Part shown: piece by piece, positions 3,374 through 62,796 of the stretch
How positions within the stretch are numbered: the stretch's first letter is position 1
How the letters are laid out: every line of letters starts with the position of its first letter
From: Escherichia phage vB_EcoM-P3322
Sequence record: PV191315.1
Direction: 5' to 3' (one strand)
Length of the DNA stretch: 64,000 nt
Program-made: the position numbers and the translations under genes
Notes under the pieces: generated by a model
Database searches by the model: none
What the model was told of the DNA's origin: nothing
Seen by the model: only the letters and a program-made list of their open reading frames with translations

Positions 3374-4063
3374 ATGCCTGTAGAATATAAATCTGAACGA
3401 TTAGATATCAAACCACTTCAGCTTTCAGAAACCAAAGATTATCTTGTGGAGTTCCACAATGGTGATGTTGTTACTGTAATAGAGGCTGATGATGAGTTAG
3501 AGAAGTATGGTTTCCAAGGTTATAAAGATTATAAAAGGACGGGTAAATTTTCTTATATTGTAGTGTCTATAGATAAAGATAGTTTACATACTCCTAGTAT
3601 CCTTTTTAATTTCTACAAAGAGGATGGAGTATTTAAAAATCCAGATATAATTCTTATTGACGAGTCTATTGGCGACATATGGATCGTAGATAAAGGTAAA
3701 AAGAAAGAAGTTAAAGGTTGGGGAAGTTATTGGTTAGCCTATCAGATGCTAATGGGAGATAAAACAGATAGTATCCGACCTTATCAAGATTTTGATATTA
3801 AGTTTGGAGATATTACTTGTTTTAATCTTCTTTCAGCTTGTAAAACTCAAGCAGAGCTTTTCCAAACAGTTAAAGATACTTACTACTCGTGGTTCCCAGA
3901 TGGTGTTAATTTTACTTCTTGGGATGGAGAAGAAGTCCATATGACAACAGATGAATGGATAGAAACAATTTTCCAGTTGGTATACATGAAACGCTGGGAT
4001 AACGACGATACAACATTTGAGAGTATGCTTCAGTCATACATCTCACAACAGGAGGCAGAGTGA
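3374..4063 (+). CDS. hypothetical protein (possible nuclease); reading frame is open upstream to 2933 without ATG/GTG/TTG
   Basis: Track ORF from first ATG; same frame is stop-free for 147 codons upstream (see findings). Confidence 0.55.
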   Translation: MPVEYKSERLDIKPLQLSETKDYLVEFHNGDVVTVIEADDELEKYGFQGYKDYKRTGKFSYIVVSIDKDSLHTPSILFNFYKEDGVFKNPDIILIDESIGDIWIVDKGKKKEVKGWGSYWLAYQMLMGDKTDSIRPYQDFDIKFGDITCFNLLSACKTQAELFQTVKDTYYSWFPDGVNFTSWDGEEVHMTTDEWIETIFQLVYMKRWDNDDTTFESMLQSYISQQEAE

Positions 4064-8899: not shown

Positions 8900-11140
8900 T
8901 TGATTCGTTTTGTAACTAAATCTAACGGTAAGACAGAGGAGTTTAATCCAGAAAAACTTCGCAAGTGGTCTGAATTTGCAGCAGGTAAACTAAACTGGTC
9001 TGAAATTGAATTAGAAGCTGTGAAGCGGTGTTATGACGGTGTGTCTACACGTGATCTGCATAAAGCAATGATTGCAGCGTGTATTGACAAGAAAACACAA
9101 GCTTACAGTGATATGGCAGGAAGACTTCTTCTTGGTATGATTTACAAACAGGCTCATGGGGGATACCACAGTATCCCTTCACTGAATACCTTTTATCATG
9201 ATATGGTAGAACGTGGACATTGGGCTAAAATGGATTATACTGATGAAGAGATCAAAGAAATCGGTAAGATTGTAAAGCATAATAAAAATCTAACTTATGG
9301 TTATTCTGTTTTACGTCAGATGGTAGATAAATATCTTATTCGAGATGCAGTAAACGATGTGGTGCATGAGTCTCCACAGTTTCTTTTCATTGGTATCGCA
9401 ATGAAGGTTATGGAGATCCAACCAAAAGAACGCCGTATAGAAGATATTAAAAAACTTTATACTTATGTTAGCGATCTTAAGATTAATCTGCCATCGCCGT
9501 ATCTGACAACTCTACGAACTCCAATCAAAGGAAGTGCGTCTTGTTGTTTATTCCGTGCAGACGATACAGCAGAGTCTTTAGCCATTGCTAATTACTTAGC
9601 TCATGAGTATACGTTGAATAACGCAGGTATTGGTGTTAATCTTCAAACTCGTGCCACAGGTCAAGGTGTTAAGAATAATCGTATTATTCATGGTGGTCTT
9701 CTTCCGTATCTGAAATGGATGGAAGATAGTGTTGGAGCTTCGAAGCAAGCAAGCCGTGGAGGTAGTGCTACAGTTACCTTTACCATACTTGAACCAGATT
9801 TCGACGATCTGATTCGACTGAAGAATCCAACAACACCTATAGATAAACGAGTAGACAAACTGGATTATTCTATTGTTGTTAACCGTTCGTTCTTGCGTCG
9901 AGCAGCAAAAAACGAAGATTGGATGTTAGTTAGTTGTGACGATGCTCCTGAACTTTATGAAGCTTTGTATAAAAGTGAAGAAGAGTTTGATGCAGTTTAT
10001 GACAAAGTAAGCCGTCGTCGCATTAAGAAAAAATTTGTTAAGGCTCGTGATCTTCTGACAGAGATTATTGTTCAACGTGCAGAAACAGGACGTATTTACA
10101 TGTTCTTTGCTGACAACGTTAACAACCATACACCTTTCCTGGATACGGTGTATCAATCAAACCTGTGTCAAGAAATCTTCTTACCAACTAAAGCTTTCCA
10201 TAGTATGCCGGATCTCTTTACTGGTGAGAATACAGAAGATCAAGAATTGGCTTTATGCTTCTTATCTTCTATTGTTGCTGGTCGTGTATTACCTGAAGAA
10301 TATGAAGATGTTGCATACTACACTGTATTGACAATTGACAACGTTATTGAAACAATGGATTATCCATTTAAACATAACGAAATAACTGCTAAAGCACGTA
10401 GATCTATTGGTGTAGGTATTACAAACTTAGCGCATTATTTGGCAAGTAATTTTGTAAATTATTCAGATGCTTATGCTAAAAAATTAATGCATGAACTTGC
10501 AGAACGTCATTACTTTTGGTTGGCAAAAGCCTCTCTGCGTCTGGCTAAGGAAAAAGGTAATGCAGAATGGATCGATAAGACCAAATGGCCTCAAGGTTGG
10601 CTACCAATTGACACTTATGCTAAAACAGTAGATAGTATCGGTAATTTTGATCTTAAAATGGACTGGGAAGGCTTACGTGCTGAAATCATTGAACAAGGTG
10701 GTATCCGTAACAGTGTCTTGGCTGCTATTGCACCTAATGAGTCCAGCAGTTTGGTAAGTAATACGACTAACTCTCTGTACCCTGTTCGTGATACTATTAT
10801 GTATAAACAAAGTCAGAAAGGTAGCGTATTATTTATTGTTCCAGATTACGAAAAACTGAAAATGTTCTACCAATCCGCCTGGGATACTCCGGCTAAAGAC
10901 CTTGCAGAAATGTATGGTATCTTTACCAAGTTTACGGACCAAGGAATTTCTTGTGATTCTTGGTTAGATTATTCTAAATTGGTAGGGGGACGTTTATCAG
11001 TTAAAGAAGAGATGAAATTTATTTTGAACTTTGCTAGACTGGGTGGTAAGTCATTGTATTACCTTAATAGTAGAACAAAATCAGCAGATTCTTTAGCACA
11101 AGAAGATTCTGATGGTGGTTGTGAAGCTTGTAAGATGTGA
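8900..11140 (+). CDS. nrdA: ribonucleotide reductase class Ia large subunit
   Basis: 746 aa colinear with E. coli NrdA incl. C-terminal redox cysteines (CEACKM); TTG start after GGAGGAG. Confidence 0.95.
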   Translation: MIRFVTKSNGKTEEFNPEKLRKWSEFAAGKLNWSEIELEAVKRCYDGVSTRDLHKAMIAACIDKKTQAYSDMAGRLLLGMIYKQAHGGYHSIPSLNTFYHDMVERGHWAKMDYTDEEIKEIGKIVKHNKNLTYGYSVLRQMVDKYLIRDAVNDVVHESPQFLFIGIAMKVMEIQPKERRIEDIKKLYTYVSDLKINLPSPYLTTLRTPIKGSASCCLFRADDTAESLAIANYLAHEYTLNNAGIGVNLQTRATGQGVKNNRIIHGGLLPYLKWMEDSVGASKQASRGGSATVTFTILEPDFDDLIRLKNPTTPIDKRVDKLDYSIVVNRSFLRRAAKNEDWMLVSCDDAPELYEALYKSEEEFDAVYDKVSRRRIKKKFVKARDLLTEIIVQRAETGRIYMFFADNVNNHTPFLDTVYQSNLCQEIFLPTKAFHSMPDLFTGENTEDQELALCFLSSIVAGRVLPEEYEDVAYYTVLTIDNVIETMDYPFKHNEITAKARRSIGVGITNLAHYLASNFVNYSDAYAKKLMHELAERHYFWLAKASLRLAKEKGNAEWIDKTKWPQGWLPIDTYAKTVDSIGNFDLKMDWEGLRAEIIEQGGIRNSVLAAIAPNESSSLVSNTTNSLYPVRDTIMYKQSQKGSVLFIVPDYEKLKMFYQSAWDTPAKDLAEMYGIFTKFTDQGISCDSWLDYSKLVGGRLSVKEEMKFILNFARLGGKSLYYLNSRTKSADSLAQEDSDGGCEACKM

Positions 11141-17309: not shown

Positions 17310-17330
17310 GGGGCTTCGGCCCCTTCTAAA
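17310..17330 (+). terminator. stem-loop terminator
   Basis: aggggc-ttcg-gcccct. Confidence 0.6.
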
Positions 17331-17342
17331 AGGAGTGCTACT

Positions 17343-18101
17343 ATGGGAAATAAAACCGCAGCTAAAACACAACGGCAGAAACTGGCTAATTCAGCAAAGA
17401 TTGAAAGCCGTTATGCAGCAAAAGCGGTAGGTAATGACGATTACCGTTTAGATGAATTTATGCCTGAAGGGGACCAAAATAAGATTGTTCAAAGCATGAT
17501 TTGGAATGATCTGACTGTTGTAAATGCTCCGGCAGGGACTGGTAAAACCTCTGTTGCTTTATGGAAAGCTTTGCAGATGCTTCGTTCAGGAGACTTCCGT
17601 AAACTACTTTTTATCAAGAACCCTACTGAAGTCGGAGATGACCAGATTGGTTTCTTGTCTGGGGATAAAACAGATAAACTAGCAGCACACTATGAATCTA
17701 CAAAACGTATTTTCCAGCAATTCATGACAGCCAACAAATTGGAAAACGATATTGGATCAGGTAAGATCGAATTGAATATTCCTAACTATTTGTTGGGGGC
17801 CACCCTGGATAATACTATCGTCATTATTGACGAAGCACAACTTATGTCAACAGAAACACTTAAACTTCTTATTGAACGTGCAGGTATTAATACGCATGTT
17901 ATTGTATTAGGCGATGTTCGCCAGACATATGCAATTAAAAAACGTAGTAATGGTCTGCATCAAATTTTGGAACTTTTATATCCAGAGAATGAAGAAGGTG
18001 TTCGTGAGCCAATTGTAGATTTTATTGGATATGTTGAACTGACAACGGACGATAATAAACGTGGACGTTTGTCTAAACTGATTACTGAAGTGTTTATTTA
18101 A
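17343..18101 (+). CDS. phoH: PhoH-like ATPase
   Basis: Walker A GTGKTS; PhoH-like length; ATG 17343 after AAAGGAG. Confidence 0.85.
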   Translation: MGNKTAAKTQRQKLANSAKIESRYAAKAVGNDDYRLDEFMPEGDQNKIVQSMIWNDLTVVNAPAGTGKTSVALWKALQMLRSGDFRKLLFIKNPTEVGDDQIGFLSGDKTDKLAAHYESTKRIFQQFMTANKLENDIGSGKIELNIPNYLLGATLDNTIVIIDEAQLMSTETLKLLIERAGINTHVIVLGDVRQTYAIKKRSNGLHQILELLYPENEEGVREPIVDFIGYVELTTDDNKRGRLSKLITEVFI

Positions 18102-46438: not shown

Positions 46439-46813
46439 TTATTCAAAGCAAACATTATTTGCATCTTCAATTCTGTCTTTCACCCATTGAAGACGTAACG
46501 TGTTGGTATGACACGCCAAGTTTATACACTCTGAAAGGTAATCCATGCAATCTGCATTGAACGGAAGATTGTAGTCCAGCCCTGCACATGTAAACTGTTT
46601 CCTCATTTCGTATTTCAAACTATCCAACAAACGATCACGCCATCTTTTATCTTCTTCTCTGGTTGTCTCACCAACAAAATCATCTACATAATCTACCAGA
46701 CAACCACATAAGCCACTCGTTGTGCGATTCATTGCAGGATAGTTGGCAATCCATGCTTTATAGAAGCGAAGCAATGTTGCACTACTCAACGGAATATTTT
46801 TACTCTCTTGCAT
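46439..46813 (-). CDS. paralog family A member (N-terminally extended)
   Basis: RBS GAGAGGAG; FYKAWIANYPA...GLCGCL...PFN...RLQWVKDRI. Confidence 0.6.
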   Translation of the reverse strand: MQESKNIPLSSATLLRFYKAWIANYPAMNRTTSGLCGCLVDYVDDFVGETTREEDKRWRDRLLDSLKYEMRKQFTCAGLDYNLPFNADCMDYLSECINLACHTNTLRLQWVKDRIEDANNVCFE

Positions 46814-48434
46814 GACAATCTCCTCTCATCGTTAGCCATCTTTCATGGCAATCATCAATCACCAACATCATACGATCAATCTCAGGGAATTACAATCGAA
46901 TTATCATAGGGGATTCCTATCAATTATCCCATATATACCGATTATTTTTGACACCCCACTCTTGTATAAAAAGTAACCCAAAATATCTACGGGGAGAGAT
47001 TATTTCGGGACACCCTGTTTCATGGCAATCATGGCAAGAATATCTAATAGAATCAATATCATATGGCAAAAATCATGACGCATACGTAAGAAGTGCTTAA
47101 CGCGAATTTTCGGGCCGTCAGGTCCACGCAGCGACAATTCCCAAATATCATGAGAATGAGAATAATTATCATTCGTATTCAATGACTTATGCAAGGCTCA
47201 TGCCAACATAGCGACAAGGTGGGCCACTTGATTATAAATCACACAAACACTTATTTATCAATAGGTTGGCAACTTCATCATATGACGGAACATTGTCAAC
47301 TGATCCCGCTCATGACAAGCAGACTATTATTTATATGAGAATGATTATTATTTAAACGTTTATTAACATAAAAATTAAAATAAATCAAGAATTTTCTGAT
47401 TTTATTTACGTTTAAGAGAAGATGCTCAACATCCTACCGGATCGCCGTTGGCAATCCTCGGATATTTACGCCCCCATGATTAAGGTTTATCTCTTTTCTT
47501 AGTGCTCAACATTCCCGCCCGTGGCGGTAACATTTCGCCCCCAAAATTATTGCTTTTTATTCTATTATGTGCATAGTGTGCAATGTATCGGAATGATGAT
47601 AATCATCCTCCCATTGCCCCCATAATTATTGCCATGCTAATGATTTCATCTTGTAATTACCACAATGATTATTGTTATTGCGCTAATGTTATGATCTTGG
47701 TAATTACATATAATGCTAATAATAAGCCAGCGCAATAAGTGTAAGCGTCATTACGCTTGCAATTATTGCAAGCTACGCAGTAACAAGAAATAACCATCAC
47801 CGATGGTTATGATTGTTGGGGTGTAGTTGGCTTATTATTAGCTCGCTATGTGTCCGGCATAGCGTGCTAATGATGATCCTGGGAATGATTCGTTTTGTAA
47901 TGATTTCATTCAGTCACTATTATGGCAATAGTTATTATTTTAATGGTTTCGTTTGTTATTGTTCGTTAGTTGGTTGTTTTGTCGTGTTATCGTTATCTTG
48001 CTTAGTATTCATCATGGTTTGATTGTTTGTCGTTATCAATCATCTTGCTATTATTCCTTTGATTATGATTAGTTTGCTTATTGTTTTAGGTTGTTGGTTA
48101 GTTAGTTGTTGCGAACTATTATCAACATTATAGTTATGCACTTATATTGCATAGATAAACATGGATAGATGATAATGGTTATCATTGAACTAGAAAAGAG
48201 GTAAAAGGGTGTTTTTGATGGTTTGTTGTTGGTTGTTGATCGATTTTAACCGCTATAAATGGCTCTCTAACAGCCTGTTACCCTGGGAGGTATGGTTATT
48301 CGTTTAATGGTTGATTAGCTCGATACCGCGATTTATTCAATTTTGTTCTGTGTCGGTTTTTCATAGGCGAAAGCTATCAACATTGTTCGGGCAAAAAGAA
48401 AGGGCGCTTGGTGCGCCCCTTGTTTTGTTGTCGC
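46814..48434. other. 1.6-kb ORF-poor region with iterons, palindromes and a GT-skewed tract; candidate origin/packaging/regulatory region
   Basis: No convincing ORF; direct repeats gctaatg..atcttg.taattac; perfect palindrome gcttgcaattattgcaagc; GT-rich low-complexity 47930-48130. Confidence 0.5.
48398..48429 (-). terminator. bidirectional hairpin terminator (copy 1 of AAGGGCGC-N5-GCGCCCTT)
   Basis: aaagggcgc-ttggt-gcgcccctt flanked by T/A runs. Confidence 0.6.
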
Positions 48435-48854
48435 TTATAACGCTTCATAGATTGAGTAGATCCGGTTTGCCAGATCATTACGAAAGCGGAATTTTTCATC
48501 ACGTTTGATCATCAGATCCTTAAAACCGCATTCTTTCAGTGCTTCATTAACTTTATGGCGGCAAACGTTCATATTATCCTGCGCGTCACCAATAAACTTA
48601 TTGCTGTGATGCATTGCTTTGATCTCTTCCTCTAATACCAGGGCAACTACACGGATCGGATCAAGCTGATATGCGGTAACATCCATGCGGCATTGTAGAC
48701 GGCTTTTAACATCGTTTACCGGATATACTGCAACCTCTTCCCCGTCAACGTTCACAATAACCAATTTACCATCGATTTCGAAGCCTTTGGCGGCGCTACC
48801 GTGACAAAAAGCGTTATCGAAGGAGTAAGCTGGATTATTTGATTTAATGTTCAT
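48435..48854 (-). CDS. hypothetical protein
   Basis: ATG 48854 after AAAGGATAA; track start 48938 lacks RBS. Confidence 0.55.
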   Translation of the reverse strand: MNIKSNNPAYSFDNAFCHGSAAKGFEIDGKLVIVNVDGEEVAVYPVNDVKSRLQCRMDVTAYQLDPIRVVALVLEEEIKAMHHSNKFIGDAQDNMNVCRHKVNEALKECGFKDLMIKRDEKFRFRNDLANRIYSIYEAL

Positions 48855-48894
48855 AGTGTTATCCTTTGTTTCGTTGTTTGCTGCCAGTGAATTA

Positions 48895-48923
48895 AATATA
48901 ATATAACGCCGATCCCCTGTCAA
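48895..48923 (-). promoter_or_regulatory. sigma70-like promoter embedded in palindrome
   Basis: rc: TTGACA-17nt-TATATT; -35 flanked by atcccct/aggggat inverted repeat. Confidence 0.5.
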
Positions 48924-48959
48924 TAGGGGATAGCGCATTATTTACATTTCTTTACGTTA

Positions 48960-58435: not shown

Positions 58436-58693
58436 TTAACCACCTTTTTTCAACAATTGGCATACTTTAAAAAGACTTGCTGAATCCTTGCAAGGGTAGA
58501 AAGATGTACGATAATCACGTACGCCAACCTTGCGGATCTCGATGTTTTCGCATGTTGTTTGATCAAAGATATTTATTTCATCACGCCCCCTTATATAAAC
58601 ATAGTGGGGATGTATTAACGCATATTTTGCTAATCTGTAAAAAGCGTTATCTTTGAACGCGATCACGTGACCTTTTAATTTGATGTAAAACAT
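58436..58693 (-). CDS. hypothetical protein
   Basis: RBS AAGGTGG. Confidence 0.55.
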   Translation of the reverse strand: MFYIKLKGHVIAFKDNAFYRLAKYALIHPHYVYIRGRDEINIFDQTTCENIEIRKVGVRDYRTSFYPCKDSASLFKVCQLLKKGG

Positions 58694-58707
58694 TCTACCA
58701 CCTTACA

Positions 58708-58767
58708 AATAGCGGGAACTATTCCCGCTTTATGTAACATATTAACAAATTATTCGTTAATGTCAAG
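58708..58767 (-). promoter_or_regulatory. PeSL-like unit
   Basis: hairpin agcgggaactattcccgct; rc TTGACA at 58760-58765. Confidence 0.65.
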
Positions 58768-58769
58768 CC

Positions 58770-59042
58770 TTAAAGCAAAAACGCTACATCTTGCGCTTTT
58801 AGTGTAGTATCAACCATTTTCGGGCTTTTATAATCAACAAAGCGCGCGGTTTTTTCAATAGCGAAACCGAGATAATCTTGCTTGTTGAAATTACATTCTT
58901 TCTTAAATGTTTCCCGTGCAATGGCAATCGCTGCGTCCAGGGATAAACGCCCGTCAATATTGATATTAGCGAAAGATCCGCCACCGCTCATAGGTTTACC
59001 AGTGGTGCCAGCTACGATCATTGTTGCGCTATATGATGCCAT
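58770..59042 (-). CDS. hypothetical protein
   Basis: RBS AGAAGAGAGATTA. Confidence 0.6.
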   Translation of the reverse strand: MASYSATMIVAGTTGKPMSGGGSFANINIDGRLSLDAAIAIARETFKKECNFNKQDYLGFAIEKTARFVDYKSPKMVDTTLKAQDVAFLL

Positions 59043-59064
59043 GATGATAATCTCTCTTCTGTTA

Positions 59065-59128
59065 CGAGCGGGAAACCACTTCCCGCCCTATGTGATACAT
59101 CTTATCAGGTTGTTGTTTGTTGTCAATA
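59065..59128 (-). promoter_or_regulatory. PeSL-like unit
   Basis: hairpin agcgggaaaccacttcccgccc; rc TTGACA at 59121-59126. Confidence 0.65.
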
Positions 59129-59132
59129 CTTT

Positions 59133-59330
59133 TTATTCTATCCCTGCAATTTGATTAACGCGCTTGCATTTTGTAGCGTGCTGGTCTTCTGTAATGACTC
59201 CCATTTCTAACAGGGAATCAATGAAAGATAAAACCGTTTCATGATCATCCTGGGGATGACTGAACTCAGTAAAACCGTTTACTATTACGTTGATTTGTCC
59301 AGCTTTCGCCACAATATGCAATGTTGCCAT
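59133..59330 (-). CDS. hypothetical protein
   Basis: RBS TGGAG; long GC-rich leader upstream. Confidence 0.55.
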   Translation of the reverse strand: MATLHIVAKAGQINVIVNGFTEFSHPQDDHETVLSFIDSLLEMGVITEDQHATKCKRVNQIAGIE

Positions 59331-59603
59331 GATCTTAACTCCAGGTGATGAATGATGTTTTTTGTTGGTGGACGGTGGATTATGGAGATCCTCACCTTTG
59401 CCCGTCCTGCATTGCGCCCTCCTGTTGTTTATTGTCGTTGTGCCGCGCCCCCCTCGACAAGATGAATACTACGCTACCAGGCGAGGAACGTCAACCACTT
59501 TTTCAATCTTTTTTATTTTCTTTTTGCTTGCTATATATAAAGGAAAGGGCTATCATCTTTCTACCGCGCCAACCAGGGCGCACAACAAAGAAAGGGCGAC
59601 ACC

Positions 59604-59870
59604 ATGACAAATACTACATTACACCTTATGCACTCATTGGGCTGGCAAGGCGGCACGGTGCACCAGGTAGCAAGCGCAACGGGCTTAAAGGTTGAAACAG
59701 TTCTCAACCTGGGCGATCATAAGGTGGAAGAGATAGACCATTTTGATCCGTTCGCTGATGGTTATTTATGGGCTTGCAGTGGCGGCGGGGAAAGCAAGAT
59801 CCCACCAGGGGCGCGGGGCGATATGCATTTTTGGTTAGGTGTCCTTTCCTGGCAAGAAAACAAAAAATAA
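59604..59870 (+). CDS. hypothetical protein (isolated + strand ORF in GC-rich island)
   Basis: Track ORF with non-repetitive sequence; weak RBS. Confidence 0.3.
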   Translation: MTNTTLHLMHSLGWQGGTVHQVASATGLKVETVLNLGDHKVEEIDHFDPFADGYLWACSGGGESKIPPGARGDMHFWLGVLSWQENKK

Positions 59871-59872
59871 TC

Positions 59873-59901
59873 TTGACAAGCCCAGGGATCGGGCTTATAC
59901 T
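59873..59901 (+). promoter_or_regulatory. strong sigma70-like promoter with palindromic spacer, no downstream ORF
   Basis: TTGACA-17nt-TATACT; spacer agccc-agggatc-gggct. Confidence 0.55.
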
Positions 59902-59907
59902 GTTTTA

Positions 59908-60010
59908 CATACAGAAGAGGAAGCGCCACCCCACGGCGTAAAGGCGGGGCTAACATACCAGGGCGCTGGTTGGAAGGTTGATCGCCGGTAGGCTGGGCGC
60001 TATATATTTG
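59908..60010 (+). ncRNA. candidate small structured RNA
   Basis: GC-rich transcript from consensus promoter; no credible ORF; boundaries approximate. Confidence 0.25.
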
Positions 60011-60119
60011 TAAAGAAATGTAAAGATAAAATAATCGCTTGCTTTCCTGGCTGGATCTGTTATTCTTATTACATGGCGAGGGGACACGGGAGCGCGAGAC
60101 AAACACCGCCCCTGCGCGT

Positions 60120-60500
60120 CATTCTCTAAATGAGAATGATTATCATTTACCTTATCAAATAAGAATCAATCTCATTTATAAACCTAAATGCGAATCATTA
60201 TCATTTGCATTTCCATATGAGAACTCTTCTCATTCCCATCTGCATAAATTTTTGTAAACTTTAAATTTTGCTTTTGTACTTTCATTTTTGTAAAAGCAAA
60301 AAAACTTTAAATACTGTGGGCGCGCAAAATTTTTAAAATTTTCCTTGACTTTTGAGTTTTGTTTTGTATCTAACATTTTAAGATAATTTTCCTAAACTTT
60401 AAATTTTGGTTTTCAACTTTCACTTTTGTAAATTCTTAAAAAGTTTAAATAATTTGAGGAATTTTTGAGATAACAAGTAGGGGTAATTTGAGATAACCTT
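60120..60500. repeat. AT-rich iteron cluster
   Basis: Direct repeats aaactttaaattttgNttttNNactttcaNttttgtaaa x2; aatgattatcattt x2; tttgagataac x2. Confidence 0.5.
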
Positions 60501-60593
60501 TAATCTTATTGGCAGACCTTCAGGAACCCACCTAGATCGAATCCTAATGATGCAAACTGAAAAAGATAAGTGTTTGTATAGGACAAAATAATA

Positions 60594-60626
60594 GGCTCTC
60601 TACAGTGTTGTAGGAGCCTTATTTCT
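60594..60626 (-). terminator. bidirectional hairpin terminator downstream of NADAR gene
   Basis: ggctc-t-ctaca-gtgt-tgtag-gagcc flanked by T-rich runs on both strands. Confidence 0.55.
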
Positions 60627-60674
60627 GTGCTACAAAGTGACACCTTTGTTCTAAAAATGAAAAAAGTTAAAATA

Positions 60675-61217
60675 TCACAAATATCGTCTTTGCGGTATTT
60701 TGTCTGGGAAAAGTATTTCGATCAGTTTGTTATGATATTTGCCTAAAAGATTCTGCCCTTTCCAGGTGGCAGGGTTTAGCACCCCTGGTTCATACATCCC
60801 CATTCCAATTCCGTAAACCTTATCGTAGGGGCTTGCTTCAACAAACGTTTTGTATTGGTAAAGGTGTAAGTCTGCATACAAATCTGGATTCTGTACATAT
60901 TTCAAGCATAAACCTCGCATAACAATACGCTCACGGTTCTCTTCCCATACGTTGTTATCAAAATCCGACACTGCCCTACCCATACGTTTGTAATAAGCTT
61001 GGATCTTCTCATCTTTCCGTATCAAACTATGAGTCAGAATAGCCTGTGCAGTGTTGTGGTCATTAAAAAGCAAAGCTTTACGCCACATCATGTATTGTTC
61101 GACACAATTAAATGTCTGATTGTAACCTGGTTCGGTTTCTGTAAAGGGTGCAATATACCAATTACTAAAAACATCTTTATGTGAAAAGAAGAATACATAT
61201 TCGTCAGTTATTCTCAT
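60675..61217 (-). CDS. NADAR-domain (YbiA-like) protein
   Basis: 180 aa; N-terminal FFFSH..FSNWY and central NCVEQYMMWRKALLF resemble the NADAR/DUF1768 signature (recall only). Confidence 0.6.
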   Translation of the reverse strand: MRITDEYVFFFSHKDVFSNWYIAPFTETEPGYNQTFNCVEQYMMWRKALLFNDHNTAQAILTHSLIRKDEKIQAYYKRMGRAVSDFDNNVWEENRERIVMRGLCLKYVQNPDLYADLHLYQYKTFVEASPYDKVYGIGMGMYEPGVLNPATWKGQNLLGKYHNKLIEILFPDKIPQRRYL

Positions 61218-61393
61218 TTTTTCATACCTTCTAAGACTTTAGCTTGCCCGTCTTGAAAAGCTTTCATCAGAACTATCTTAAGATTGACTTCCAAGCGTTC
61301 TTCATCCTCTTTATAACAATCCAACACTGCTTTAAGTTCATCATAGTGGTTCAGAATAGGTTTAAAGATTTCATGATCTGCTAAACGTGCCAT
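61214..61393 (-). CDS. hypothetical protein
   Basis: ATG 61393 after AAAGGAGAAAC; track start 61429 overlaps next gene. Confidence 0.5.
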   Translation of the reverse strand: MARLADHEIFKPILNHYDELKAVLDCYKEDEERLEVNLKIVLMKAFQDGQAKVLEGMKK

Positions 61394-61406
61394 AGTTTCT
61401 CCTTTG

Positions 61407-61772
61407 TTAATCCATCCACCAGTAGCCATAAACTGCGTCTGCGTCGATTAGTTTGTGTTTGTTGTTCCGCATGTAGTCTAAGATAAGTAGGCGTTTATTG
61501 TATCTGGAGAGATTATGACCCTCTTTTCCGCCATAGTCAAAATATTTTGCAAGATCTTTGCACTCAAACAAAATTAGTTCGGGAGTTTCTTCACACTGGT
61601 CTGTCTGGTACACTTGACGAATGATCATGTATACATCGTCGTCTTCCGCTAAATGCTCTACTGGTCCACATCCAGCAGGAACAAATTCATAGTCCCATCT
61701 GATCAGATGTTTCTCTACTGCTTCAAAGAAGTCCATTCTTTCGTTGCGCATAATTTGAACGTCAACTAACAT
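61407..61772 (-). CDS. hypothetical protein
   Basis: RBS CAGGAGGAAAC. Confidence 0.6.
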   Translation of the reverse strand: MLVDVQIMRNERMDFFEAVEKHLIRWDYEFVPAGCGPVEHLAEDDDVYMIIRQVYQTDQCEETPELILFECKDLAKYFDYGGKEGHNLSRYNKRLLILDYMRNNKHKLIDADAVYGYWWMD

Positions 61773-62755
61773 GTTTCCTCCTGTAATGTTCCACCATAAA
61801 GTTTATAAATGTTTTGTATTGAGGCCATGCAAGATAACTCTACTGTTTCTGTGTAGCCATCTGGCATAGAATATTTGCTCACTGCTTCCGTGTGAAGGAC
61901 ACGCTTACAACGCTTTTCTGCATCTTTGCATTGCTTCACAGTAGGGAAGTGCCACACTTGGCTCTGTTTCATAGTAAACACATTATGACTATTTTGTTCT
62001 TTGATACGGCGATCACTACTATTGGCAATACCAAACTTCAAAGCACAGAGAAGATTTTGTTCATCGTAGATATAGTTGATGTATGCCTGTTGTTGTGTAT
62101 GCCCTTTACACTTCGGACAACCACGCCCCTTATGTAATAAGTGGTCAGCATTCCCTATTTGCTCCCCGTGATCCTTACATCCATATTTAAACTCTCCTGT
62201 TGAGGAAGGTTTACTAATCCACTCTATCCAGATATATCCTTTACTTTCTAAACCTTTTCTCACCTTGTAAGTGATCTGATCTTTTGTATAACGGTAAACT
62301 CTAGTACAACGACAAGGGATAATCCCTTTTTTAAGATCGTTCCCTGCAATGTAAAATTTACCATCACACACTCCTGCTTGTACGTATTCATCATGAGAAC
62401 AAACAGGACATTCAACCATCCAGAGAATATGACTCCCTTTACGTTTGCCTGTATTGGTGAAAATGGTACCAGGTTTAAACTTTCCTGTGTTAATGAAATC
62501 TTTTATGTGCTGATCGTCTGTCTTACCTCCTTTCCCAAATCCTTTCCCAATTGCACAGACAGGACAACCAGCACGACCAGTTTTAAAGTTTTTAAATGTT
62601 GTAGTGTTCCATTCATGAGCATACTGACAACGATTGATCATTTTCGTGTGTTGTCCTGTAAACGGCTCAACAATTCCAATAATCTCAATCCCTTTAGCAG
62701 CAGCAATAGGTTGACACTCTTCAATATATTGTTCAATACTCTTCTTTACTGGCAT
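61766..62755 (-). CDS. multi-zinc-ribbon protein with C-terminal T5orf172/GIY-YIG-like domain (possible homing-endonuclease-like)
   Basis: Repeated CPVC/CPKC motifs; C-terminal YINYIYDEQNLLCALKFGIANSSDRRIKEQ; ATG 62755 after AGGGAGA. Confidence 0.5.
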   Translation of the reverse strand: MPVKKSIEQYIEECQPIAAAKGIEIIGIVEPFTGQHTKMINRCQYAHEWNTTTFKNFKTGRAGCPVCAIGKGFGKGGKTDDQHIKDFINTGKFKPGTIFTNTGKRKGSHILWMVECPVCSHDEYVQAGVCDGKFYIAGNDLKKGIIPCRCTRVYRYTKDQITYKVRKGLESKGYIWIEWISKPSSTGEFKYGCKDHGEQIGNADHLLHKGRGCPKCKGHTQQQAYINYIYDEQNLLCALKFGIANSSDRRIKEQNSHNVFTMKQSQVWHFPTVKQCKDAEKRCKRVLHTEAVSKYSMPDGYTETVELSCMASIQNIYKLYGGTLQEETC

Positions 62756-62796
62756 ATCTAACAATTATCTCCCTGTTAAACTGAAATCAATATAAC

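Follow-up and report, generated by a model that had tools for sequence, protein, structure and literature searches.

A conserved, mostly non-coding control module in a phAPEC8-like phage: a candidate transcription-activated replication origin with predicted Fur and CpxR sites

What is the function of a gap in a bacteriophage genome in which two promoters oppose every neighbouring gene and read into DNA that holds no ORF? The question is raised by positions 59331-60674 of a 64,000-nucleotide stretch of Escherichia phage vB_EcoM-P3322 (sequence record PV191315.1), the whole of which was analysed and is referred to here as the window. The window is from a Phapecoctavirus, i.e., a phAPEC8-like phage of E. 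coli. As judged from its sequence, the region is a conserved, mostly non-coding, early control module, and our best reading, offered tentatively, is that it may serve as a transcription-activated replication origin with inputs from the host regulators Fur and CpxR. An initial annotation had recognized a promoter, repeats, and a terminator, all of which have been borne out; it overlooked the gene ORF88, a second promoter (P2), an exact CpxR consensus, and the Fur-box identity of part of the repeats. From left to right, the module comprises the following features.

59331-59460, minus strand: G-rich 5' UTR of ~125 nt, following the TTGACG-17-TAGTAT promoter-like site
59466-59494, minus strand: promoter-like site TTGACG-17-TAGTAT, putatively for the leftward early gene starting at 59330
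59528-59556, plus strand: promoter-like site TTGCTA-17-TATCAT, divergent from the preceding one and putatively for ORF88
59604-59870, plus strand: ORF88, a protein-coding gene of 88 aa upstream of P1 (phrog_19316)
59873-59901, plus strand: P1, sigma-70 promoter TTGACA-17-TATACT, matching 11 of 12 consensus positions with a 17-nt spacer
59911-59991, plus strand: RNA1, a highly conserved, GC-rich non-coding element of ~80 nt downstream of P1
60010-60024, plus strand: exact CpxR consensus direct repeat GTAAA-gaaat-GTAAA, ending 14 nt 5' of the P2 -35 hexamer
60039-60066, plus strand: P2, early-class promoter TTGCTT-16-TATTCT, its -10 followed by ACAT(A/G)GCG and a 5' hairpin
60071-60126, plus strand: RNA2, an imperfect hairpin of ~50 nt with conserved loop GAGACAAACACC, at the 5' end of the predicted P2 transcript
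60130-60233, no strand: four Fur-box-like (7-1-7 TGATAATnATTATCA) palindromes at 29-nt spacing, consensus AAATGAGAATnATTaTCATTT, at 60130-46, 60159-75, 60188-04, and 60217-33
60247-60456, no strand: AT-rich DNA (21.5-24% GC) containing two direct repeats of 72 nt each, putatively the iterons and the site of unwinding
60464-60497, no strand: TTTGAGATAAC twice, separated by ..GGGGTAA.., an element that also occurs at the end of the T5 terminal repeat
60586-60624, no strand: bidirectional intrinsic terminator, a hairpin flanked on either side by U-tracts; the phAPEC8 annotation also labels the element a terminator

The neighbours of the gap encode a NADAR protein, a homing endonuclease, and a classic Cdc48/Rix7-type AAA ATPase. 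The layout, together with its gene context, is kept across Stephanstirmvirinae and Vequintavirinae, and such conservation of architecture over two subfamilies argues for an origin. P1 and P2 are both rightward, and no ORF lies between them and the bidirectional terminator, which is ~700 nt away. The GC-rich island and AT-rich DNA of the initial annotation proved to be the most GC-rich and AT-rich stretches of the window: 59900-59999 is the top-GC 100 bp of the 64 kb (60%), and 60255-60454 the lowest-GC 200 bp (21.5% GC), with 24% GC over 60158-60457, after P1 and P2. GC skew reaches +0.15 to +0.22 over 59600-60099; this skew and the presence of both compositional extremes in the region are each counted for an origin. 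As was claimed earlier, no credible ORF follows P1. A minus-strand ORF of 114 aa annotated in phAPEC8 lacks codon periodicity (its variable sites divide 26/22/23) and differs between relatives by indels of 1, 4, and 5 nt; with no periodicity and with indels that break the frame, a hidden gene downstream of P1 was rejected. Searches of the region found no tRNA or tmRNA. Tandem Repeats Finder reported no tandem array there, for which reason head-to-tail repeats of ~36 nt of the type III antitoxin or pseudo-ToxI kind were dismissed; identity with the pseudo-ToxI of phiTE, the known escape locus of that phage, was also dismissed, as pseudo-ToxI lies at 106.7 kb in phiTE and the homologous module at 39.6 kb. 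A plasmid origin was discarded as well, the single “plasmid” match being a 137.6-kb record with the size of an rV5-like phage. It is highly likely that the region is non-coding and under selection, and very likely that P1 and P2 are real promoters.

By its pattern of variation, ORF88 is a real protein-coding gene. Its variable sites are distributed 25/16/50 by codon position, its reading frame is intact in 11 genomes, and its PHROG match has E = 4.5e-59. All 21 homologues reside on phage-sized contigs. The AlphaFold2 model is a five-helix bundle (pLDDT 93), and the conserved N-terminus, LGWQGGTVHQVA..TGL.V, has helix-turn-helix-like spacing; neither a Pfam match for the protein nor a significant PDB fold match for the model was found. 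ORF88 is an unlikely binder of the palindromes, since 4MG has a different gene in its place and nimi has none, with the boxes kept in both, and its fold is also without a PDB match.

The near-perfect promoter first reported at P1 holds up. Promoters matching at least 11 of 12 positions occur 12 times in the whole window against 2.6 expected, and P1 is the sole plus-strand example in the window's minus-strand half. Its spacer is indeed palindromic: AAGCCC-AGGGATC-GGGCTT forms a terminator-like hairpin at 59878-59896, directly after the ORF88 stop codon. A clear spacer hairpin is present in the window, FBKp34, and phiTE, which are the three with an ORF88-family gene upstream. The -35/-10 pair is found at the same position in 4MG, FBKp34, phiTE, PBES02, and others with a different spacer sequence, and the strength of P1, with its position kept while the sequence changes, favours an origin.

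Between the two promoters lies the CpxR consensus, GTAAA-N5-GTAAA (PMC4846824). Exact copies number two in the window, against 0.24 expected, and the other, at 48.9 kb, is also just 5' of a phage promoter. All 18 aligned relatives in which this segment is retained keep the motif (a relative designated L026 has an insertion there). As in CpxR-activated promoters, the exact predicted site is ~50-55 nt 5' of the probable P2 start; unlike those promoters, it is located in a virulent phage genome, is absent in Vequintavirus, and is degenerate in some metagenome variants.

P2 keeps its position in relatives that have better hexamers (TTGATC or TTGCAA, a 17-nt spacer, and TATTAT or TATATT), and its “CACATAGGGCGG + hairpin” start is common to the minus-strand early promoters at 59130, 57693, 56186, and 52297. 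This early-promoter signature, together with the non-coding DNA that follows P1, again points to an origin. The hairpin at the P2 start, RNA2, has an outer helix that is 91% paired across 14 sequences, and its many G.U pairs make it strand-specific; covariation in these 14 sequences was not significant against shuffles. The inner helix pairs GGG with CCC in the window, but CCC with GGG in phiTE. Folding z for RNA2 is ~0 (+0.3) by itself and -2.6 when the adjoining box hairpin is included.

An RNA could itself be the product of the module. In this alternative, which is possible but somewhat unlikely, P1 and/or P2 would make functional RNAs acting on host or phage targets, namely RNA1 (~80-100 nt) and/or a transcript of ~560-720 nt to the 60.6-kb terminator, with the DNA repeats being secondary. 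Such a product might, for example, bind a protein, serve as a decoy, or act as a leader in cis. A strong promoter, the absence of an ORF, and a unit closed by a terminator are all as expected of such a locus, and so is the conservation of RNA1, with 86% mean column identity among 22 distinct sequences from subfamilies whose flanks fail to align. RNA1 consists of a CGCC/GGCG hairpin, a possible H-type pseudoknot (CCCC with GGGG) that can be drawn with an A-rich loop 3, and a second, longer hairpin whose length varies. Its pair 46-68 is AU in 11 of the distinct sequences and GC in 11, and the two one-sided changes both lead to G.U, a strand-specific pattern. Among metagenome variants, one gains a compensatory G-C pair and, in two, the middle segment is shorter and contains UUCG. 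Relatives differ by indels whose lengths are not multiples of three. L026 has a gene, complete with a ribosome-binding site, inserted directly after RNA1, which suggests that RNA1 can serve as a leader.

Several results weigh against an RNA locus, however. An Rfam scan of 58500-61500 on both strands, proposed earlier as a check, returned nothing real at E ≤ 1; the only match, FtrA (E = 0.87), lay over the terminator and reached 25.8 bits, the gathering score being 134. Folding, also proposed as a check, gave only z = -1.8 for RNA1, and RNA2, as noted, is no better; these unexceptional energies count against the origin reading as well. No intrinsic terminator lies behind RNA1 or RNA2, the covariation may derive from one recombined segment, and the Vequintavirus nimi lacks RNA1 yet keeps the promoter, hairpin, boxes, and repeats. 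RNA1 has no similarity to E. coli sequences that would hint at mimicry, and mimicry of the host was set aside on that basis. A looser pattern for widening the RNA1 set, GGAAGGTNNATCGCCGG, produced chance hits only. As far as a sequence can show, the small regulatory RNA of the initial annotation is supported: a promoter position conserved in distant relatives, ~80 nt of non-coding conservation, the covarying pair, and the strand-specific G.U changes speak for it, but no terminator defines a length of ~100 nt and the folding is unremarkable. In turn, RNA1 is conserved far beyond the needs of an R-loop primer, suggesting a function of its own, and this is counted against an origin.

The four palindromes probably bind Fur. 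One of the repeats reported earlier, aatgattatcattt twice, is real as part of this array, although its second copy matches at only 13 of 14 positions. The palindrome motif has 8 matches in the window against 0.89 expected. With a position weight matrix (PWM) derived from a published set of 11 Fur boxes (PMC10665472), which themselves score 13.3-25.5 bits, the site at 60132 is the top match of the 64 kb, with 22.0 bits (maximum of 50 null sequences, 17.7), and the site at 60190 scores 13.7 bits. Boxes 2 and 4 are weak Fur matches (at most 11 bits) that favour TGAGAA over TGATAA. Fur-PWM matches were conserved in every relative scanned, and in 16 of 18 related loci they were confined to the box array or the terminal repeat, with two T5-like loci having a few elsewhere too. 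The placement here of the window's top Fur match, conserved in all relatives, is counted for an origin, as is an unrelated viral contig in which DnaA-box-like repeats form an array beside a Fur-like one. Like enterobacterial Fur boxes (19-bp GATAATGATAATCATTATC, 7-1-7 TGATAATnATTATCA), box 1 matches at 15/19 and 14/15 positions, and the core AATGAGAATCATTAT of T5-like copies is part of the published box GATAATGAGAATCATTATT. Unlike them, the phage boxes are arrayed at 29-nt spacing, prefer G at position 4 of the half-site (TGAGAAT), and overlap no -35 or -10, lying 55-160 nt downstream of the P2 start; no strong promoter overlapping 60130-60233 was found at which Fur might occlude polymerase. 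No report of Fur boxes in lytic phages was found in the literature searched.

It is well established that multicopy Fur boxes titrate Fur, which is the principle of the FURTA assay. The array might therefore act mainly as a sponge for this host factor as phage DNA multiplies, derepressing the host iron-uptake regulon and thereby feeding iron-dependent phage enzymes, with the promoters and repeats as unrelated neighbours. In addition to the titration precedent, the top box scores inside the range of true sites, further boxes occur in the window at 47152, 47337, 47592, and 48171, and 27 of the 119 viral loci that bear the motif have arrays of three or more. We nevertheless regard the sponge as unlikely to be the main function: the weakness of boxes 2 and 4 would allow for another protein of similar taste, and the fixed place of the array between P2 and the repeats in every relative suggests a local role. 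The “binding sites” of the initial annotation are accordingly best read, in qualified form, as likely host Fur and CpxR sites plus phage-specific repeats.

Beyond the palindromes, the 40-nt unit reported twice is genuine and forms the core of the 72-nt direct repeats at 60247-60318 and 60385-60456, which are 82% identical (90% in the core). The ~40-nt core reads ACTTTCAyTTTTGTAAA..AAAAAsTTTAAATA. The Justusliebigvirus phages KMB37 and BME3 have three copies of the ACTTTCAyTTTTGTAAA.. core, and FBKp34, 4MG, phiTE, POP17, and nimi carry other direct repeats at the same place, such as cGATCGAGAacc units. Between genera, sequence and copy number change and the place is kept, and this constancy of place argues for an origin; the presence of only two long repeats in Phapecoctavirus argues against one. 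Next, the second short repeat described earlier, TTTGAGATAAC, is present in two exact copies. The window-type element is GGGGTAATTTGAGATA, compared with the T5-like GGGGAAATTTGAGATA; T5 has TTGAGATAAtttGGGaagATTTGAGATA at about 10120-10147, and 4MG has TTTGAGATA three times. Finally, the terminator is truly bidirectional (z = -4.67 on the plus strand and -5.93 on the minus strand; none of the shuffled sequences folded so stably). It closes both the rightward non-coding unit and the leftward operon ending with the NADAR gene (60675-61217), and the insulation of the unit that it provides is counted for an origin.

Position within the genome bears on two further alternatives. Partition or packaging had been suggested earlier, and packaging in particular is unsupported. 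A packaging (pac/cos) site or genome terminus would suit a non-coding, repeat-rich region, and one public record (EC152) begins inside the homologous repeats. The reading is nonetheless extremely unlikely: the 329-bp terminal repeat of Schickermooser, of the same genus, maps to 47098-47426, ~13 kb away, the 342-bp DTR of BME3 is homologous to that place and not to the module, and the DTR of KPP-1 is 8.6 kb from the KPP-1 module. A long, T5-like terminal repeat spanning 47-60 kb was also rejected, as the repeats measure 328-514 bp and double coverage is found there only.

The second alternative is a counterpart of the T5 injection-stop region (iss), in which the module would be a host-factor landing pad at a fixed fraction (~8%) inside the entering end, serving to pause, anchor, or gate DNA entry, or to bound the first-expressed takeover genes. 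By analogy with T5, the likeness is considerable. T5 Repeat Region 3, at the inner end of the left terminal repeat, is also non-coding and repeat-dense, with AAATGAGAATnATTaTCATTT palindromes at roughly 29-35-nt spacing, followed by short family-specific direct repeats (GTGCAAATCCGAC in T5) and then by a TTGAGATAA..GGG..ATTTGAGATA element, and it likewise lies ~8% from the genome end, past small genes read toward that end. The sequence of Fur-like array, family-specific short direct repeats, and TTGAGATAA..GGGG.AATTTGAGATA is shared, in this order, with T5, phiR2-01, and HildyBeyeler. The module thus has the palindrome array, the family-specific direct repeats, and TTGAGATAA..ATTTGAGATA in the T5 order, and in T5 the shared elements fall inside the RefSeq-annotated iss feature at 9140-10149. 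The module is ~13 kb inside the genome end, at 8.5-8.9% from the 329-bp repeat in Phapecoctavirus, 8.1% in BME3, and ~6% in KPP-1, compared with 7.9% in T5, and small genes between end and module read toward the end in both phage groups.

There are differences too, and an injection-stop counterpart is improbable. Repeat Region 3 belongs to a 10.2-kb terminal repeat and contains a LexA box and DnaA-box inverted repeats; T5 is nicked in one strand at 9748, lacks RNA1 and the CpxR site, and needs A1 and A2. In place of a terminal repeat of ~10 kb, whose inner end the module would occupy, Phapecoctavirus has one of 329 bp, and KPP-1 double coverage is limited to 514 bp. Homologues of A1, A2, and other T5 pre-early proteins are lacking in the window (tblastn of 17 pre-early proteins gave no match below E = 0.1), and the paired DnaA boxes (IRD'-spacer-IRC') proposed by Davison as key elements (10.1101/866236) are absent from 59000-60900. 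For these myophages there is no report of two-step injection, and the role of the shared elements in T5 itself is unproven. The likeness also counts against an origin, since the closest sequence relative of the module's right half is the T5 injection-stop region and T5 origins reportedly lie near the genome centre (Davison preprint, 10.1101/866236).

The origin reading, to which we return as the preferred one, would operate as follows. Host RNA polymerase starting at P1 and P2 would open or prime the adjacent AT-rich iteron region by way of a G-rich transcript or R-loop; the transcripts would begin with the GC-rich, G-skewed RNA1 and RNA2 and then cross the four palindromes and the AT-richest DNA. 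A phage protein would bind the genus-specific repeats, and firing would be tuned by the host through Fur (iron) bound at the palindromes and CpxR (envelope stress) acting at P2. As it replicates, the array would also titrate Fur, either as a side effect or as a further function.

The logic may be likened to that of the T7 primary origin, T4 oriF/oriG, and lambda ori. As in transcription-activated phage origins generally, tandem promoters face an AT-rich, repeat-bearing, ORF-free stretch and the transcript is G-rich. The T7 primary origin consists of the phi1.1A/B promoters plus an AT-rich stretch, and here tandem P1 and P2 are followed by the ORF-free 60158-60457. Lambda ori has four dyad-symmetric iterons beside an AT-rich stretch, to which the phased palindromes of the module, next to AT-rich DNA, bear a likeness that is counted for an origin; in iteron-type fashion, these palindromes and the pair of 72-nt repeats fall within the 200-300 bp of lowest GC in the window. 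The dyad sites, however, resemble host Fur boxes in place of sites for a phage O-type protein, the promoters are those of host and not phage RNA polymerase, and no initiator gene is adjacent. T7, with its promoter-plus-AT-rich origin, is also the model for a replisome of the Gp230 type. Gp230 of rV5 has GP4d_helicase and DnaB domains, and its homologues include podovirus primase/helicases (PMC3606486). This helicase type, combined with the T7 style of origin, is counted in favour.

An origin had been among the options of the initial annotation, and the architecture fits it. On the other side, none of the neighbouring genes is an initiator (ORF88 has no known fold), and no consensus DnaA box (TTWTNCACA) was found, only matches with one mismatch; both absences count against an origin. 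So does the fact that, to our knowledge, Fur boxes are a component of no known origin. In the rV5 genome paper, skew analysis was tried and no origin was found, the skew following transcription direction (PMC3606486).

The preferred origin and the T5 likeness can be joined. It is conceivable, although decidedly unlikely, that in these myophages the module corresponds to the T5 iss, being a Fur and CpxR landing pad ~8% inside the entering end that gates entry and/or the start of replication by host state, for which the T5-side sites would be Fur-like, LexA, and DnaA.

The rV5-like and phAPEC8-like phages are widely used as candidates for therapy and biocontrol, and for their origins and early control regions the module offers a concrete, testable candidate with mapped parts. 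Within the literature searched, three things are newly connected: a conserved phage RNA element absent from Rfam, Fur and CpxR consensus sites in virulent phages, and the T5 repeat region at the first-step-transfer boundary, which has long been unexplained. If Fur does bind, the iron status of the host would be linked to replication or entry of the phage, or host iron uptake would be derepressed, and this would be relevant to phage efficacy in iron-limited body sites. If true more generally, Fur arrays near phage ends or origins would represent a widespread, undescribed way to read or titrate the host's iron regulator.

The module under study (59331-60674) is a gap of 1.35 kb between two leftward transcription units of an E. 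coli myophage that is phAPEC8-like and belongs to Phapecoctavirus (Stephanstirmvirinae), and all of the genes flanking it lie on the minus strand. From 59000 to 60900, the sequence shares 95-98% identity with ECO340P1, DE16, ZCKP1, phAPEC8 and others, and the module DNA is present in more than 100 public genomes. As comparison with relatives shows, the module is a selected, non-coding, rightward early transcription unit that is insulated by a terminator. The relevant features are as follows:

59604-59870, plus strand: ORF88 (phrog_19316), a protein-coding gene
59911-59991, plus strand: RNA1, a conserved element after promoter P1
60010-60024, plus strand: putative CpxR consensus site, GTAAAgaaatGTAAA, an exact GTAAA-N5-GTAAA
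60039-60066, plus strand: P2, a second promoter, with modest hexamers here and better ones in relatives
48941-48955, minus strand: second putative CpxR site, an identical 15-mer
59130, 57693, 56186 and 52297, minus strand: leftward early promoters with a common signature

Public records annotate the gap differently, with an 88-aa plus-strand ORF in anhysbys and a 114-aa minus-strand ORF plus a terminator in phAPEC8. The former, ORF88, is a real gene; its frame is unbroken in 11 genomes, its variable sites are distributed 25/16/50 by codon position among 10 Stephanstirmvirinae sequences, and all 21 of its homologues come from phage-sized contigs. No match to ORF88 was found in Pfam, nor did its confident, five-helix AlphaFold2 model (pLDDT 93) significantly match any PDB structure, and residues 19-38 may form a helix-turn-helix. 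The 114-aa ORF and a 116-aa plus-strand ORF were ruled out as genes by their flat codon-position profiles (26/22/23 and 53/53/56, respectively) and by indels of 1, 4 and 5 nt among relatives. The hypothetical protein phAPEC8_00257 (3677-4018 of the phAPEC8 locus; window 59762-60106, minus strand) overlaps P1, RNA1 and P2 on the opposite strand, shows no sign of being coding and was probably called as a gene in error; the module contains no coding sequence downstream of P1. To the right of the terminator, a NADAR-domain protein (Pfam E = 7.8e-36) is encoded at 60675-61217 on the minus strand; its counterpart is apparently labelled “GTP cyclohydrolase II” in several public records, seemingly in error. 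Between the NADAR operon and an AAA ATPase lies a homing-type endonuclease (CapR domain, phrog_681; 61766-62764, minus strand). Since this endonuclease is nearby and, at one related locus (L026), RNA1 is directly followed by the insertion of a different gene that has a ribosome-binding site of its own, the module looks like a hotspot for mobile insertions.

The initial annotation described a consensus promoter with a palindromic spacer, GC-rich and then AT-rich DNA, direct repeats and a bidirectional terminator, and this description is accurate, although it overlooked one gene and the identities of several sites. P1 (TTGACA-17-TATACT; 59873-59901, plus strand) matches 11 of 12 consensus positions; the window holds 12 promoters of such quality against 2.6 expected, and P1 is the sole plus-strand example in its minus-strand half. 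Both composition extremes of the 64 kb are found here (60% GC at 59900-59999 and 21.5% GC at 60255-60454), the 40-nt repeat forms the core of a longer direct repeat of 72 nt, TTTGAGATAAC is present in two exact copies, and the terminator is a strong hairpin at 60586-60624 (z = -4.7 and -5.9). The palindrome within the P1 spacer is a hairpin, AAGCCC/GGGCTT, that stands out in the three with an ORF88-family gene upstream (the window, FBKp34 and phiTE), and no such hairpin occurs in the P1 spacer of 4MG, which has a different upstream gene. It can be read as the terminator of the ORF88-family gene, embedded in the promoter.

RNA1 has a column identity of 86% across 22 distinct sequences. Its consensus fold comprises a hairpin (CGCC/GGCG), an outer helix (GGCGG/UCGCC) and an inner hairpin, and the CCCC of the hairpin loop can pair with a downstream GGGG, giving, in our reading, a pseudoknot of the H type whose third loop is A-rich. 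Pair 46-68 divides evenly between A-U and G-C, with 11 sequences each, and only two one-sided changes occur, both G.U, which fits the plus-strand orientation. Paired cells amount to 95.9% overall versus 23-53% with partners slid. Among variants from a metagenome scan, L215 has changes at both A44 and G70 that create an extra G-C pair and lengthen the helix in the predicted fold, and L226 and L232 have a shorter middle segment with UUCG inside; the predicted minimum-energy folds of the latter two contain no UUCG-capped hairpin, and the support that these two lend is by eye only. Such features would suit a functional RNA, a reading that we consider rather unlikely; a strong structural claim is weakened by the invariance of most pairs, an AU/GC switch that a single recombined segment may have carried along, a predicted pair that fails in half of the sequences, and a folding z-score of only -1.8. 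RNA1 matched nothing in Rfam, tRNA or E. coli sequence. No clean terminator was found after it, and P1 transcripts may run on to 60.6 kb.

The -10 region and start of P2 (TATT-ACATGGCGAGGGG...) copy the signature of the leftward early promoters, namely TTGACA-17-TAAGAT-gtat-CACATAGGGCGG, followed by a short GC hairpin and then AACAGAAGAGA and ATG. This shared signature puts P2 in the early class of promoters; the 5' hairpin usual for that class is enlarged in P2 and bears the conserved loop GAGACAAACACC. Pieces of the leftward early-promoter leader recur in P2 and at the 5' end of RNA1 (ACAGAAGAGGA). In RNA2, the element at the 5' part of the P2 transcript, the outer helix is 91% paired, with many G.U pairs and covariation not above shuffles, the inner helix is GGG:CCC in the window phage and CCC:GGG in phiTE, and the stability z-score is ~0. 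The putative CpxR site ends 14 nt upstream of the P2 -35 hexamer. Exact matches to the CpxR consensus (GTAAA-N5-GTAAA; PMC4846824) number 2 in the window versus 0.24 expected, and the second, within 48885-48955 on the minus strand, follows directly on a terminator and precedes an 11/12 promoter (TTGACA-17-TATATT) by 17 nt. The motif is present in all aligned relatives that retain the segment and is degenerate in some metagenome variants.

A sensitive search found 59904-60176 at 68-77% identity in several Vequintavirinae, namely Seunavirus (4MG, SSE121, EC152), Certrevirus (phiTE, PBES02, POP17, F5M1E) and Klebsiella phages, as well as in FBKp34, a Klebsiella phage of the Stephanstirmvirinae; Vequintavirus and T5-like phages carry shorter pieces. 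Each such myophage relative has a gap of ~0.85-1.3 kb in its leftward gene array with an identical order of parts: an optional ORF88-family gene, P1, RNA1, GTAAA-N5-GTAAA, P2, the RNA2 hairpin, 1-6 palindromic boxes and then genus-specific direct repeats in AT-rich DNA. The Vequintavirus nimi lacks both RNA1 and the GTAAA repeat and possesses two promoter-hairpin-box units followed by repeats. The module is old and modular. An E. coli “plasmid” of 137.6 kb in PLSDB (CP057073.1), equal in size to an rV5-like phage genome and perhaps a phage filed as a plasmid, carries a 74%-identical copy of the RNA2/box segment at 17311-17419.

The “aatgattatcattt” repeats are parts of four palindromes (60130-60233) with 29-nt spacing and the consensus AAATGAGAATnATTaTCATTT, a pattern with 8 matches in the window versus 0.89 expected; those outside the array lie at 47156, 47335, 48169 and, more weakly, 50417. 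At its core, this consensus differs by one change from the 7-1-7 Fur motif, TGATAATnATTATCA. A Fur weight matrix, built from 11 published boxes (PMC10665472) and independent of this phage, placed 60132 at the top of the 64 kb with 22.0 bits (training sites, 13.3-25.5 bits; maximum over 50 Markov null sequences, 17.7), followed by 47152, 47337, 47592 and 48171. Boxes 2 and 4 are weak (at most 11 bits), and the half-sites prefer TGAGAAT. The palindromes are Fur-box-like in sequence, and it is possible that a different protein of similar specificity recognises them. Every related module has 1-4 matrix matches (12-22 bits) directly after RNA2, with no further matches in the 1.8-7.9-kb flanks of the 12 myophage loci scanned, and T5-like phages have 4-6 in the region itself. 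More than 120 IMG/VR contigs, widely varied in size, contain the exact 18-base motif, and at 27 of 119 motif-bearing loci at least three matrix matches fall within 350 bp. The array in the module might act as a Fur sponge, an improbable role in our estimation and one that can coexist with an origin. Three unrelated viral contigs carry 5-8 Fur-type boxes each in non-coding DNA: L141 (2950-3240), adjoining terminase genes; L093 (2350-2760), adjoining an array of DnaA-box-like repeats; and L182 (11420-11690), near the contig end. No description of Fur boxes in virulent phage genomes was found in the literature searched.

The same palindromes occur in the T5 injection-stop (iss) region, Davison’s “Repeat Region 3”, which contains, in order, a perfect LexA box, DnaA boxes, about six palindromes, a hairpin, direct repeats (GTGCAAATCCGAC; nine copies of the DRD repeats by Davison’s count, 10.1101/866236) and TTGAGATAAtttGGGaagATTTGAGATA, the window counterpart of which is TTGAGATAAcaagtaGGGGtaATTTGAGATA at 60466-60497. 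Because the same elements recur in order, the right halves of the module and of the T5 region are collinear. In contrast, T5’s DnaA-box inverted repeats are absent from the module, and the window encodes no homologue of any of 17 T5 pre-early proteins. In T5-like phages (T5, L007 and L008), the perfect LexA (SOS) box, TACTGTATAAATATACAGTA, lies inside the annotated injection-stop region together with six to eight Fur-type palindromes; in T5, the box is at ~9409-9428, the palindromes at ~9553-9725, and the 7.9% nick (9748) falls in the hairpin directly after them. Davison’s preprint (10.1101/866236) mentions neither Fur nor LexA.

The genome of Schickermooser, a phage of the same genus, carries a terminal repeat of 329 bp (PMC6563267); the two ends of its record match without a difference over this length and map to window 47098-47426, to which the 342-bp terminal repeat (DTR) of BME3 (PMC12210895) is also homologous. 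Owing to this homology, 47098-47426 probably represents the end of the phage’s physical genome. Within it lie two Fur-type boxes (47152, 47337) and, at 16% GC, the most AT-rich 100 bp of the window, and the wider non-coding stretch (46813-48435) has further boxes at 47592 and 48171. The BME3 module lies at 11.6-12.4 kb, and the 514-bp DTR of KPP-1, its only double-coverage stretch, is 8.6 kb from the KPP-1 module. The module therefore lies 6-9% of the genome inside one end and is not the packaging end, so that the packaging site proposed in the initial annotation is highly improbable; a long T5-type terminal repeat is likewise rejected. First-step transfer in T5 covers 7.9% of the genome, and the small genes between end and module are transcribed toward that end, an arrangement shared with the left part of T5’s repeat. 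An iss-like entry or boundary role, for which position and collinearity speak and the missing T5 elements do not, is about as improbable as the sponge and equally compatible with an origin. The BME3 record (PP239276) repeats ~860 bp plus the DTR at both ends, with N bases in one copy, and the ends as deposited seem in part to be an artefact of assembly or editing.

Taken together, the rightward unit is predicted to cross host-factor-type sites and to enter an AT-rich repeat region, the repeats of which co-vary with phage genus. The mechanism that we hold most likely, tentatively, is a transcription-activated origin, which the layout of promoter, G-rich transcript, iterons and AT-rich DNA would suit. 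Also in its favor are an rV5 protein that carries both GP4d_helicase and DnaB domains and is related to podovirus primase/helicases (PMC3606486), and the Fur-like array of L093 beside DnaA-box-like repeats. However, no initiator gene adjoins the module, no consensus DnaA boxes were found in it, the conservation of RNA1 far exceeds a primer’s needs, and T5 origins are reported elsewhere in that genome (Davison, 10.1101/866236). In rV5, skew analysis for an origin gave only transcription switches (PMC3606486). The literature searched held no description of the module, RNA1, or Fur or CpxR sites in these phages. The module may represent an origin-like regulatory region of a phage in which the content of host-factor sites is unusual and the link to the iss region of T5 was not expected.
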